A stretch of DNA of 64,000 nucleotides from an uncultured Acidobacteriota bacterium. GTDB taxonomy: Bacteria > Acidobacteriota > UBA6911. The DNA lies in assembly GCA_963827655.1 (NCBI GenBank), contig CAWHCF010000026.1, positions 274,708-338,707 of the forward strand, written 5' to 3'. This document shows positions 11,266-16,411 of the stretch, piece by piece. Position numbers and translations under genes: made by a program. The number at the start of each line of letters is the position of its first letter. Position 1 is the stretch's first letter. The notes beneath the pieces are model-generated. The model had not been told where the DNA came from. It worked only from the letters and a program-made list of their open reading frames with translations, and did not search any database.

Positions 11266-11559
11266 CTGTGGACGCGGATCAGAGGCTGTCGCAAAACCCC
11301 GTCCATGTGCGGACGGGCTATCAAGCCCGTCTTCGGCCCTGGAGGGGCATTCCTGAACTTTTAAGGTAGGCATAGCGATTACGTAACTTGCGACGGGCCC
11401 AATGGCCCGTCGCCACAGCGTGCTCGGAAAGTGTCACGCGTACTTGGAGACGGCGGACTTACGAGCTAGGCGGAATGAAGTTTCGACGGGCGGCGCTTCG
11501 AGTGCGCCTGATCCGGCCTGTCGCGTGTTGGTCGCGGGGTTATTGCAGCGTGATCGGGT

Positions 11560-14230
11560 TCACTCCTGGCGCAGCGACTGCGCGGGATCGATCCTGAGCA
11601 CCCGCCGTGCGGGCACGTAGCAGGCCGCCATTGCGACAAGCGTGAGGCCGAGCGCCACGGCCAGCAGCGTCGAGTGGATCCGATGGCGACACGCCCACAA
11701 GCGCAGCCCGAATCAAGCCGCCCGCCACGTAGACGCCCGGCGCGCCGATCAGCACCCCCAGGCCCACGAGCCGAGCGCCCTCGCCCAGCACGAGTCGAAG
11801 GACGGTACGGTGATCGGCGCCGAGCGCGAGCCGCACGGCAAGCTCGTGACGGCGTCGCGTAACCGATCCCGAGATCACGCCGAACAAGCCCATCGCGGCG
11901 AGGAGCAGCGCGCCGAGCGCAAAGCCGGCGACGAGCACCGCGCTGACACGCTGCTGGCGAAGCGCGTCGCCGACGATCTCGTCCATGGTCCGCACATCGG
12001 CGAGCGCGAGTCGCGGGTCGATACGCCGGATTGCCGCTCGCACGTCCGGGACGAGGCTGTGCGGTTCACGCCCGGCGCGGAGCACGAACGACAGCGTGCG
12101 GTAGCCCCAGTCCTCGGCGCGCACGAAGAGCTGCGGACGGCCGTCCTGATGGACGTCGTACAGCCGAGCCTGCCCGACGACGCCGACGATGGTCAGCGAA
12201 CGATCGCGGAACGGGATCTTTGCGCCGAGCGGGTTGCCGGTCGGAAAGAACTGCCTCGCGAGGAGGCCGTCGATCAACGCCTCGCGCACGTCGTCGCGGC
12301 GCGCGTGGTCGAAGGCGCGGCCGGCAAGCAGCCGCATGCCCATGACCTCGACATAGGCCGCGCGGGTGCCGATGTAATCGACGAGCGGCGCGTCCCGATC
12401 GGCATCGCCGGTGTTCCCGGGCGCGCCCGGGATTCTGATCGTATTCTGACTGGCGGAGGCCGTGAGCGGCAGCGCAGATGTGGCGCTCACGCCCGTGACG
12501 CCGGGTATCGCCGCAAGCGCGTCCTCGACCCGGGCCTGGAGCGCGAGGGCGTCGGCGATTTCCGGGAAGATCTGGGACGGCATGGGCACGCGCATGGTGA
12601 GGACGCCCTCCGGCTTGAAGCCCGGGTCCGCACCGAGCAGCCGCTCGAAGCTCCGCACCACCAGGCCGCCGGCGCTGAGCAGCACGAATGTCAGGGCAAC
12701 CTGCGCGACCACCATGCCGCGTCGCATGCGGCCGTGACCGCCGCCGCCCCGCACGGCGCTTGCCGCGAGCAGCGACGACAGCGACGCGCGCGCCGCCCAC
12801 ACCGCGGGCGCGGTCGCGGCAATCAGACCGAGCAGCACACCCACGCCGATGACCATGGCTCCGATGCCCCAGTCGACCACGATCGCTTCGCGGCGCGGCA
12901 GGTCGAGCGGCGCGAGCGCGACGAGCGTGCGCGTGCCCCAGATGGCCGCCAGCGCGCCCGCCACGCCGCCCAGGAGACCCAGCAGCCCGCCCTCGATGAG
13001 GGTCGCGCGTACGATGACGGCGCCGTTGGCCCCGAGCGCGCGCGACACCGCGAACTCGTGCTCACGCTCGGCCGCGCGCGCCAGCAACACCGACGCGAGA
13101 TTCACCATCAACACGAGCACCAGGAACACGCCGGCGAAACCGAGGACGAGGAGGGCGGGGCGGACGCGGGAAACCAGGTCGGGCTTGAGCCCGACCGGAT
13201 ACAACTTCAGGCCCCGGCCCTTGAAGTCACGCGCGTCGACGGCTCTGCCGACGGCGGCCACGGCGGCCGCCACGGCCTGCGGCGACGTGCCGCGGCGCGC
13301 GCGGATCAGACCCGCGTAGGATCCGGCGCCCGGATTGGTCTCCTTGAGATTGACGCTGAACGTGACATACGCGTCGGCGGGCTGCGGCGGCCCTAGACTG
13401 GCGTTCTGGACGAACGCGAAGGTCGGCGGCATCACACCGATAATCGTGTGCGGCTGCCCGTTCAATCGCACGTCCGTGCCCACGATCGATGGATCGGCGC
13501 CGAGCCGGTTCCACAGCCCGTGCGTCAGCACGATCAGCGCCGGGCGGCCTGGGCCCGCTTCGCTCGAGGCGAAACCCCGACCGAGTGCCGGGCCCACACC
13601 GAGCAGCTCGAAGAGGTTCGGCGTCGTGACCATCACGGTGATCTCGGTCGGGTCGATGCCCTCCCGCGCGGAGAATGTTTGCCGCGTTCGCAGCAGACCC
13701 ACGGCGTCCTCGATGACGCCGCCGGACTGCTGCAGTTCCGCGATGTCCGTCCCGCCGAGCCAGCCTCGGTTGAGGTCGAAGTACGCCGTGTAGTCGCGCC
13801 AGACGAAGTAAAGATCGTCCGGATTCCGGTACGGCATGGGTTCGATGAGGATCTTCTGGACCACCGTATAGACGACCGCGAATGCGCCTAGTCCTACCGT
13901 CAGCGTCCCCACCATGGCCGCGGTCAACGCCGGCGAGCGCATCAGCCGGCGGGCCACCCTCTCCATATCCCGGCCCCAGTTGCCGCCGCGCCGCCACGCT
14001 GCCGCGGGCCGCGCGCGCTCGCCCGGACCGCTGCGCACCGAGTCGGCAAGCGCGTTCAACCACACGCCTGCGAGCCGAATGATGCCGCCGCGGTTCAGCG
14101 CCTCACGCGCGCGGTCCCGGTACGTCTCCACCATCGAGCCGCCCATATCGTCGCGGAAGTCGGGCGGGTAAAGCCGCAGCAGGAGCCTGAACCAGCGCTC
14201 GGACGCATTCATCAGGCGCTCGTCCTTCAT
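11560..14230 (-). CDS. ADOP-type duplicated MacB/FtsX ABC permease; one extra base near 11671
   Basis: Two MacB-like halves (REHEFAVSRALGA; RRHELAVRLALGA). The typical C-terminus ACYVPARRVLRIDPAQSLRQE* lies in another frame ending at 11560. Confidence 0.88.
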
Positions 14231-14580
14231 TTCGTTACCCTCGTGAGCAGGCCGCCGATCCGCGCCGCCCGCGTCAGCGCTTCCAGCCGCCGCGCCTCCG
14301 CCCTCGCCACGCGCAGGCCTGCAGCCGTGATGCGGTAGTAGTTGCGCCGCTCGTCGCCCGCGTCCGGCGCCGGCCGGCGGGCCGCCGCCTCGATGAGCCG
14401 ATTCTCCACCATGCGCGCCAGCGCCCGGTACATCGTGCCCACGTCGGGCACCCCTGTCTCGCCACGCGCCTGAATGTCCTTGATGATCCCGTAGCCATGC
14501 CGCTCGCCAGCAGCGAGGCTGAGCAGGATGTGAAACTCGACCATCCGTAGCGGCATGCTGCGGTCCCTGTCCATTGCCAT
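14227..14580 (-). CDS. PadR family transcriptional regulator
   Basis: ILLSL..GERHGYGI, GTMYRAL.RM, RRNYYRIT..G; overlaps the permease start. Confidence 0.9.
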   Translation of the reverse strand: MAMDRDRSMPLRMVEFHILLSLAAGERHGYGIIKDIQARGETGVPDVGTMYRALARMVENRLIEAAARRPAPDAGDERRNYYRITAAGLRVARAEARRLEALTRAARIGGLLTRVTK

Positions 14581-14620
14581 AGCGTCACCTCGCCAGCACC
14601 GGTGTGTGAGTGTGCAGCAC

Positions 14621-14650
14621 ATATATGCACTACGCATACATAGCTGTCAA
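14621..14650 (-). promoter_or_regulatory. padR promoter with overlapping palindromic operator
   Basis: TTGACA (14650-14645) followed by imperfect inverted repeat ATGTATGC-gtagt-GCATATAT (14641-14621). Confidence 0.6.
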
Positions 14651-14749
14651 GTCCTGCGTCAGGCTCTAGGTTCTACCCGGATTGCGGCTCAGACACTTTC
14701 CGAATCCTCATGTGGCGACGGGCGATCAGCAAGCGTCGCCGAACCATGA

Positions 14750-15022
14750 TCGGTAGGACTCTAGCCTAACACGCATCTTGTATTGGTCAGAAGACAGTTT
14801 GCCAGCTGCCCTTCAAAGGGCGAAGGGATTGCAGCAAGGCCTGCGTAGCAGCGAGCGCTGAACCGACGGCCACGCAGCGCCCCTTAAGTGACAAATACAG
14901 ATCCATGACCATGAGCTGCGCTTCGCTGCCACGGGGCTAATTTCCGTCGCCCCTCCGGGGCGAGATCGCGAGACCTGATGAGATGCGCGTAACGCTAAGA
15001 GCAAGCTACCGCACTCCAAGAG
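14750..15022. repeat. REP hairpin with nested MITE-like element
   Basis: CGGTAG...CACGCATCT...AGATGCGCG...GCAAGCTACCGCACTCC; same layout as 55245-55385. Confidence 0.6.
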
Positions 15023-15046
15023 CGCCCGCGTCTCAGGGCGGGCAGA

Positions 15047-15075
15047 TTGAATCGGAAGAAACACGCAGGTATAAT
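15047..15075 (+). promoter_or_regulatory. sigma70 promoter
   Basis: TTGAAT-17 bp-TATAAT, 33 nt upstream of ATG 15109. Confidence 0.7.
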
Positions 15076-15108
15076 ACTGCGCCACTATAGCTCGAATGGA
15101 GTTTCAGG

Positions 15109-15828
15109 ATGAATCGTTGCTGCCTCGCCTTGTACATTTGCCTGACGATCGGACCGGTTTCACTTCCGGCGCAGCAGAAGACCGCAACCATCGCATTCGA
15201 TAGCCTGACGAAGGACTTCGGGTCGGTCGTCGAAGGACAGAATCTCAAGCACGTTTTCAAATTCAGCAATAAAGGGGGCGCTCTCCTTCAAATAATCCGG
15301 GCTGAAGGTTCCTGAGGGTGCACTGCCACTTTGCTGTCAGCAAAGCAAATCGAACCGGGTAAGACGGGACAGCTTGAGGTAACGGTTCACACCGAAGGGA
15401 TTACCTCCAAGGTAACCAAGACGGTAACAGTCACAACCAACGATCCTCGACAACCTCAGGTCATTCTTACTGTGATGGCGACGGTCCGGTCGGAGTTCAC
15501 TCTTTCCGAAAACAGAATTTTCTTTGGAAATGTCCCGACAGGAAAAGAAGTTTCGAAAGAGATAGTGATAACCATCGTAGGCGAGCGTCCGCTCAAACTC
15601 TTGAGTGCTGTTTCCACCGATAACAACGTGCGAGTGAAACTCCAGCCTGTCCCCGGCTCAGGTAAAAGTTTCAAGCTGGTGAGCATCCGGAAACTGGACG
15701 CGAAACCGGGCCATCATTCCGGAAGCATCGTGGTGAGAACTTCCAGTATCTACAAGCCTGAGCTGAAAATCCCCGTCAGTGGCATGATCGCCCCATTCCA
15801 ATTGACGATTGATTCGATTTACGATTGA
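15109..15828 (+). CDS. DUF1573-like Ig-fold secreted protein; probable selenoprotein (in-frame UGA at 15313)
   Basis: ORFs 15109..15315 and 15331..15828 are in one frame, separated only by TGA. They read DFGSV...HVFKFSNKG..LQI..EGS-U-GCT...IEPGKTGQLEV...KTVTVTTNDP, where this family has SCGCT. Confidence 0.8.
15329..15345 (+). promoter_or_regulatory. Putative bacterial SECIS hairpin
   Basis: CTTTGCT-GTC-AGCAAAG is a perfect 7-bp stem with GU in the loop, the G lying 21 nt after the UGA. Confidence 0.65.
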
Positions 15829-15848
15829 CGATTTACGATTGACGATTG
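15801..15848. repeat. Heptamer array (ATTGACG/ATTTACG)n
   Basis: Read directly; an inverted counterpart lies at 16380-16411. Confidence 0.9.
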
Positions 15849-16064
15849 AAAAGTCACGGAAGAGAACGTGCGGTCTTGATTGAAGCGACAACCATGGAAA
15901 GGAGTTCATCGGCTTCCTTCATCAGATCGGCAACCGGCAGCCGATATTCGATTTACGATTGACGATTGAAAAGTCACGGAAGAGAACGTGCGGTCTTGAT
16001 CGAAGCGACAACCATGGAAAGGAGTTCATCGGCTTCCTTCATCAGATCGGCAACCGGCAGCCGA
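15829..16064. repeat. Tandem duplication, 120-nt period, of the 3' end of the four-helix-bundle gene
   Basis: 15829-15944 equals 15949-16064 except one base (15881 T vs 16001 C). Confidence 0.92.
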
Positions 16065-16327
16065 CTCTTGTGTCTCATTTCGTCAAATAACTCCAGCCAG
16101 TAGAGCGATTCGTCGCACTCCTCCTCAACAATCTTCAACTTCGCAATGAAATCGGCGCGCGATCGAGCCCGACATGCAGAACGATAATTTGCTCCCACCG
16201 AGGTCCCTGCACGAACCAGTTGTCCTCCTATTACGTAAGATGCTCCTGAGTTCGGCAATCCTTCGACGAACTGAATGACTCTAATGGCAAATCTCTTGGT
16301 TCGCTTCCTGAACTCGTCAGCATTCAT
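15974..16327 (-). CDS. Four-helix-bundle protein (23S rRNA IVS protein / Avd-like family)
   Basis: RTKRFAIRVI...QLVRAGTSVGANYR.ACRARS.ADFIAKL.IVEEE.DES.YWLEL. Confidence 0.92.
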   Translation of the reverse strand: MNADEFRKRTKRFAIRVIQFVEGLPNSGASYVIGGQLVRAGTSVGANYRSACRARSRADFIAKLKIVEEECDESLYWLELFDEMRHKSRLPVADLMKEADELLSMVVASIKTARSLP

Positions 16328-16379
16328 CTACCTTCTAACAGTGTGCCTTGAACAATTGCCAACAAAATCTCGGCTTTTA

Positions 16380-16411
16380 AATCGTCAATCGTCAATCGTA
16401 AATCGTCAATC
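16380..16411. repeat. Heptamer array (AATCGTC)n, inverted relative to 15801-15848
   Basis: aatcgtc aatcgtc aatcgta aatcgtc aatc. Confidence 0.9.

Follow-up and report, generated by a model that had tools for sequence, protein, structure and literature searches.

The in-frame TGA codon at positions 15313-15315 of the window, as we call the whole 64,000-nucleotide stretch of DNA analysed here, very probably encodes selenocysteine in a functional selenoprotein gene, judging from comparison of its sequence with that of relatives. The segment 15109-15828 on the + strand forms one reading frame, and its sole in-frame TGA lies within GGT TCC TGA GGG TGC ACT. Under translation table 11 this frame is split into a 68-aa ORF (15109-15315) and a 165-aa ORF in the same frame that begins at a TTG (15331-15828). 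The split by the TGA alone, from which an initial annotation of the window had proposed a hidden selenoprotein, is seen directly in the sequence. That proposal is supported by the pairing of Sec and Cys codons among relatives, a hairpin linked to the TGA forms, Sec machinery in the genome, public contigs and a DUF1573 domain that runs across the TGA. The features of the gene are as follows.

15047..15075, + strand: putative promoter, TTGAAT (15047-15052) and TATAAT (15070-15075) with a 17-nt spacer, 10 of 12 positions matching
15098..15101, + strand: Shine-Dalgarno-like GGAG, 7 nt before the ATG, read from the sequence
15109, + strand: ATG start codon, read from the sequence
15109..15828, + strand: predicted selenoprotein coding sequence as assembled, 239 codons and a stop
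15109..15171, + strand: signal-peptide-like N-terminus, residues 1-21 (MNRCCLALYICLTIGPVSLPA), cleavage guessed to fall after A21
15190..15480, + strand: DUF1573 Ig-like domain, residues 28-124, holding the U-G-C motif (PF07610, 87.9 bits, E 4.9e-25)
15313..15315, + strand: predicted selenocysteine codon UGA, residue 69, motif S-U-G-C-T (TGA/TGC pairing in the aligned column; unchanged in the contigs of four runs)
15329..15345, + strand: putative SECIS hairpin, 7 bp with loop GUC, encoding (T)LLSAK (a hairpin at the equivalent place in 15 of 15 TGA loci)
15496..15792, + strand: second Ig-like beta-sandwich, about residues 130-228 (modelled strands, pLDDT 93-97; tandem Ig/ASH-type matches)

We searched 61 genomes, namely the source genome (G000) and 60 relatives, for homologues of the protein. 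Matches were found in 41 of these genomes, and by a hand count of the resulting table 39 of the 63 matches contained an in-frame TGA. The translated frames of the 30 returned loci were aligned to the window's protein; 29 covered the column of the TGA, and the thirtieth (L056) had lost it to a contig end. The results showed that the aligned codon was TGA in 15 of the 29 loci and TGC (Cys) in the other 14, with no other codon at this place. An in-frame UGA is found where homologues have cysteine, which is the Cys/TGA pairing that the initial annotation had suggested looking for. Full-length database homologues carried S/A/T-C-G-C-T/Q at the U-G-C site, and one of them (P0012) had W at the column, which stands either for a TGA that its source rendered as Trp or for a true TGG. 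The Cys-form orthologues were single proteins of 215-249 aa. Among 43 database relatives, 25 were of about 158-165 aa and started at [L/M]LSAKQ, seven codons past the U column, the pattern left by gene callers that restart past a UGA. A maximum-likelihood tree built from the 24 orthologues that reached an alignment score of at least 400 (six lower-scoring loci were left out) required three Sec/Cys changes, and its well-supported branches alone forced only one.

The hairpin CTTTGCT-GTC-AGCAAAG at 15329-15345 begins 13 nt past the UGA; counted from the UGA, the loop G at 15336 is base 21, exactly as first described. Its folding energy was unexceptional, since 169 of 200 shuffles of the 66-nt stretch folded at least as well (z = +0.99). 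We dropped hairpin stability alone as support for a SECIS, because this stretch folds no better than shuffles. The promoter gave a similar picture. The TTGAAT-17-TATAAT site of the initial annotation is present and its position fits the gene, but one site in 1.8 kb is what shuffled sequence yields (mean 1.4), so it is not statistically distinctive. With both the energy and the promoter statistics unremarkable, support for the hairpin was drawn from comparison with the relatives.

All 15 TGA loci had a hairpin of at least 7 bp with a loop of 3-5 nt at an equal distance from the UGA. The loops were GUC in 13 loci, GAU in one and AGUUC in one, with the G in first or second position. The 17 nt of the window's hairpin were identical in 12 of 13 close orthologues, although at the protein level these share only 41-57% identity with the window's product. 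G004 had a compensatory change from U-A to C-G in the stem, and G037 and G042 had unrelated stem sequences at the equivalent place. Most loci close the stem with G-C and G007 closes it with A-U; in four, the window (A.C) among them, the closing bases do not pair. On alignment A2, in which MAFFT gapped two divergent rows so that some pair counts depend on that alignment, 94% of the cells of the named structure were paired, four of its eight pairs were changed on both sides, and none of 500 shuffles scored as high; registers slid along the same alignment were only 22-50% paired. The mean hairpin energy in a fixed 30-nt window was -9.9 kcal/mol for the TGA forms versus -5.4 kcal/mol for the TGC forms (Mann-Whitney p = 2e-4, with kin that are not independent). 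The window's hairpin was the weakest of the 15, at -6.7 kcal/mol, with A.C in place of the closing G-C. In most TGC loci the hairpin was weak or absent, and the same L-L-S peptide was encoded with varied codons. A search of 15200-15500 against Rfam returned no SECIS-type or other credible family, the best match being an unrelated snoRNA model (E 0.29). These results indicate that a 3' stem-loop with a G in the apical loop is conserved with the UGA, although the window's own copy does not stand above shuffles; the covariation that the initial annotation had proposed to look for is present as compensatory changes, and the Cys forms are mostly without the hairpin.

The bSECISearch criteria for such elements reportedly come from work by Zhang and Gladyshev in 2005. 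In the fdhF-type SECIS of E. coli, an in-coding hairpin directly 3' of the UGA is decoded via SelB. Like that element, the window's 17-nt stem-loop starts 12-13 nt after the UGA and opens its apical loop with a G, and G000 holds selA, selB, selC and selD, as in the E. coli system. Unlike it, the window's hairpin is without the bulged U, has a 3-nt GUC loop and shows neither sequence similarity nor an Rfam match; SelB binding is predicted.

We compared the locus with the Logan contigs of three DNA runs (X1, X2 and X3) and one RNA library (X15), which come from four studies. The contig records that span the site covered 15077-15422, 15121-15791, 15249-15794 and 15245-15470, and none differed from the window at 15313-15315 or in the hairpin. 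Sequencing error is thus not the source of the TGA, and the check at 15313 that the initial annotation had asked for is answered by the contigs of four runs. In some runs, parts of 14900-16000 had no contig cover. A contig of the RNA library across the TGA is a weak hint of transcription.

The 3' end of the gene showed one difference. A contig of X3 (15765-15841) was without one base at 15796, and when one T of the TT at 15796-15797 is dropped, the frame ends in ...I-A-P-S-N-stop, with a TGA at 15803-15805. Relatives end in the same way, with ...IAPSN in P0010, ...IAPSND in P0003 and ...IAPSTN in P0002. An indel error of the assembly probably accounts for the last eight codons, and the protein would have 231 residues, eight fewer than the 239 first given. 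The assembled tail FQLTIDSIYD is read from a dispersed repeat that starts at about 15801-15817, where the depth in X3 reached about 11,000 with many loose ends. The indel at 15796 agrees with the other indel errors of the assembly. The essential, single-copy genes rpoB and rpoC (contig C8 of G000, 77700-86155) are each split between two frames, which indicates that the assembly carries consensus indel errors, and broken genes in this assembly should therefore not be read as pseudogenes without reads.

The read-through product matched PF07610 (DUF1573) over residues 28-124 with 87.9 bits, well above the gathering cut-off of 26.1, covering positions 1-96 of the 98 of the profile. The domain consequently runs across the TGA at residue 69, and the DUF1573-like assignment made earlier holds. 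We built an AlphaFold2 model from a 42-row alignment, with a mean pLDDT of 91.1 and values of 91-98 for residues 21-230. In the model, the strands at 28-127 and those at 130-228 make up two beta-sandwich domains in tandem, and residue 69 falls in the turn between strands 60-67 and 71-75. Neither half of the split ORF is a domain by itself; one Pfam match and one beta-sandwich cross the TGA. The second Ig-like domain (15496..15792) matched no Pfam family above the cut-off. Residues 1-20 had pLDDT values of 49-62, and full-length relatives have a similar N-terminus; the protein may be exported through a cleavable N-terminal signal peptide. After residue 21, U69 and C71 are the only Sec or Cys residues.

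Foldseek matched the model to tandem Ig/ASH-type domains (E 6e-9 to 9e-12) in HYDIN, other ciliary central-pair proteins and 2qsv. A profile search of PDB sequences found the same proteins, among them residues 118-219 of 2qsv (E 3.5e-8), and a single-protein sequence search of solved structures found nothing relevant. The window's protein shares its tandem Ig-like beta-sandwich with 2qsv, an uncharacterised protein of Porphyromonas gingivalis W83, and with the ASH/HYDIN-type central-pair proteins (7sqc, 7n6g). However, 2qsv has no C-G-C at the aligned place in the printed alignment, the eukaryotic matches are structural components of the axoneme, and neither informs on the Sec/Cys site. The window's protein does not belong with the thioredoxin-fold thiol/selenol oxidoreductases: its model is all-beta and Ig-like, and its motif is UxC rather than UxxC or CxxU.

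A family of this kind is already catalogued. According to its published entries, OS_HP2 was a predicted selenoprotein in Olavius symbionts (Zhang et al. 2007, PMC1976440) and appeared in the GOS study as a pfam07610 protein with UxC, two Sec sequences and 354 Cys homologues (Zhang & Gladyshev 2008, PMC2398784), and two reviews are sources for the OS_HP2 or 'DUF1573 domain-containing protein' selenoprotein family (PMC9312934, PMC13188914). These lists and the NCBIfam model NF041425 ('OS_HP2 family (seleno)protein') answer with a yes the question, left open by the initial annotation, of whether the DUF1573/OS_HP2 U-G-C selenoproteins are catalogued. A full-text literature search for 'DUF1573' found no paper on function, and the main text of the BSepDB paper contained neither 'DUF1573' nor 'Acidobacteri'.

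As far as these entries describe OS_HP2, the window's protein agrees with the listed family in having PF07610, Sec at the first Cys of C-G-C (UGC/UxC) and many Cys homologues. On the same entries, its clade differs from OS_HP2 in length and architecture (about 235 aa, with a second Ig-like domain), in source (soil Acidobacteriota-type, judged by the source names of the relatives, versus marine symbionts and ocean samples) and in a strongly conserved SECIS sequence of its own. NF041425 was by far the best match of the window's protein, although it scored below the cut-off of 100, with 95 bits when C replaced U and 77.1 bits when the stop was kept. All seven full-length clade members tested against this model scored 75-96 bits, and the three distant relatives of about 340 aa all scored 105-116 bits. 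The clade of the window is a sister group just under the NF041425 line.

We examined the neighbourhood of the gene in the window and in its orthologues. Upstream in the window are a divergent PadR regulator and a MacB/FtsX-type permease; downstream are a 23S_rRNA_IVP four-helix-bundle gene and, on the other strand, a response regulator/histidine kinase pair. Among the largest frames flanking 24 orthologous loci (46 in all, within about 1.5 kb), no conserved partner was shared. The families that turned up were response regulator/histidine kinase, in the nearest kin, and besides these MFS transporters, phosphodiesterase, CLC channel, glycosyltransferase 28 and NTP transferase; another 18 frames matched no family.

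The surroundings of the gene also contained repeats. The 23S_rRNA_IVP gene (15974-16327, - strand) lies between inverted arrays of the heptads CGATTGA/CGATTTA, with arms at 15816-15853 and 16374-16411, and a 120-nt tandem duplication occupies 15822-16061. Soil metagenome contigs contain the heptad stretch in huge excess, with a depth of up to about 11,000 in one run, and the gene with its arrays (15816-16411) resembles a cassette that is dispersed and perhaps mobile. A further dispersed repeat, 14915-14969, lies immediately before the promoter-like site: about 50 nt with a G+C-rich palindrome (GCCCCTCCGGGGCGAG) and raised depth, where the contigs of four runs diverge from the window at both ends. 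The G+C content drops from about 0.71 in 12001-14000, which holds the PadR and permease genes, to 0.54-0.58 downstream; between 11540-14700 and the sequence from 14700 on, this makes a marked local step in composition beside the selenoprotein gene.

C-X-C motifs are known from redox proteins, as in the C-G-C shuttle disulfide of the sulfhydryl oxidase Erv2, and CGC peptides serve as PDI mimics. By analogy only, the U-G-C of the window's protein likewise sets two chalcogen residues around one Gly, which could form a strained, reactive bond; unlike Erv2 and the CGC peptides, the protein has another fold and compartment, and Sec replaces the first Cys. As Sec69 and Cys71 are the only Sec and Cys of the mature protein and lie in an exposed inter-strand turn of the model, a reversible selenylsulfide redox centre is the likeliest role for the U-x-C site, a reading that we hold at about even confidence.

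The same two residues, two positions apart in a turn, would also suit a different use, in which Sec is inserted but the U-G-C serves as a ligand pair for a soft metal or metalloid (for example Cu(I), Hg or Zn) and not as a redox centre. The Ig-like sandwich, in place of a thioredoxin fold, speaks for this use, and several selenoprotein families in the published tables, as far as these describe them, are metal-related. However, two ligands alone would make a weak site, no metal-related gene was found beside the window's gene or in the flanks of the 24 orthologous loci, and the tables of PMC2398784 place UxC among redox-type motifs. Metal binding is the main alternative to the redox centre, and the less likely of the two.

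We searched G000 for the Sec machinery by profile. The results showed selB in a single open frame (380 bits), selD of the Cys type (GGCAAK, 384 bits) and a tRNA-Sec (74 bits), which ARAGORN calls as tRNA-SeC with anticodon tca. The genome thus contains selB, selC and selD, all above their cut-offs. A second selenoprotein gene, OS_HP4_CYCXC, scored 96.8 bits, above its cut-off, and carried one TGA. The fourth component, selA (contig C23 of G000, 243600-245000, locus L009), scored 398 bits in at least three frames, so the Sec machinery that the initial annotation had proposed to look for is present, with selA alone in pieces. Its three frame breaks in 1.4 kb are denser than those in rpoB and rpoC. 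Because these two essential genes are broken too, assembly errors are the likelier cause of the selA breaks. A search of the protein collection for an intact, near-identical selA found none, the best full-length relative being 73% identical.

These breaks are what would suggest that the gene is a selenoprotein gene by descent that is silent or truncated in this strain, with selA truly inactivated and the UGA terminating translation. The density of the breaks beside the single ones of rpoB and of rpoC, and a best selA match of 73% identity with none near-identical and intact, both fit such a loss. Against it, rpoB and rpoC are frame-broken as well and the extra T at 15796 probably adds another indel error; selB, selD and tRNA-Sec show no damage; open frames persist in at least two selenoprotein genes with a TGA, that of the window having a SECIS as well; and four other data sets contain near-identical copies that share the TGA. 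We regard this silent state as improbable and a functional selenoprotein gene as the far better reading.

Some further observations concern selD. It was found in 60 of the 61 genomes of the group (a count that includes the unpublished genome G046), mostly with an in-frame TGA of its own; the selD of the relatives is mostly of the Sec type, with one such TGA, versus the Cys type in G000, and a few genomes have a second selD that forms part of a long fusion frame, about 800 aa in length. Directly upstream of the Cys-type selD of G000, on the same strand, lies a 136-aa single-domain DUF1573 paralogue (site of the pair: contig C50, 86189-87553; locus L017, 1393-2979, - strand), which has the Cys form G-C-G-C-T and scores 98 bits to NF041425. 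We rejected a conserved linkage of DUF1573 with selD, as the neighbour was found in one of 30 selD loci, that of G000 itself (one of the loci coming from G046).

Separate translation of the two ORFs would yield a 68-residue exported peptide and a 165-residue protein re-initiated at the TTG at 15331, with GAGGG (15314-15318) as the ribosome-binding site. This GAGGG lies 12 nt before the TTG, and gene callers predict the second ORF in 25 of the 43 database relatives. However, the split would fall inside one beta-sandwich domain and one Pfam match, the second product would be without a signal peptide, the Cys-form orthologues of 215-249 aa are single proteins, and the GAGGG is simply the U-G codons, which together make two products very improbable. 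A plain nonsense mutation or sequencing error, with the ORFs as pseudogene remnants, would fit the stop of table 11 and the other lesions in the assembly, but it is already refuted, as far as sequence comparison goes, by a TGA at the same column in 14 other genomes that pairs only with TGC, an open and conserved downstream part in relatives, a hairpin tied to the TGA forms, the same TGA in four independent runs and known assembly errors that are indels, not substitutions.

Under the selenoprotein reading, we infer that selenium is actually inserted at the UGA. SelB with Sec-tRNA(Sec) would bind the hairpin at 15329-15345 and deliver selenocysteine at the UGA of 15313-15315 during translation; a single product of about 231 residues would result, in place of a stub of 68 residues. 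A signal peptide would export the protein and be cleaved, leaving a mature protein of two tandem Ig-like beta-sandwiches, the first of them DUF1573. In the turn between strands, Sec69 and Cys71 would form a reversible selenylsulfide and act as an extracytoplasmic redox centre.

Truncated "hypothetical proteins" of about 159 residues stand on record for the gene and for at least 25 database relatives, since the UGA is taken for a stop codon and the clade scores just below the NCBIfam selenoprotein model; lying just under the OS_HP2 cut-off, the clade is systematically shortened in databases. It is conceivable, though we put it forward only tentatively, that these two-Ig-domain proteins of about 235 residues from soil Acidobacteriota-type genomes form a distinct selenoprotein subfamily, whose U-G-C on an Ig scaffold could be an undescribed extracytoplasmic selenol redox centre or chalcogen/metal-handling centre. 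Repair of the annotation would add a common, putatively exported selenoprotein to soil Acidobacteriota-type genomes. With its clean, Sec/Cys-paired U-G-C and two reactive residues only, the protein would be a convenient model for DUF1573 chemistry.
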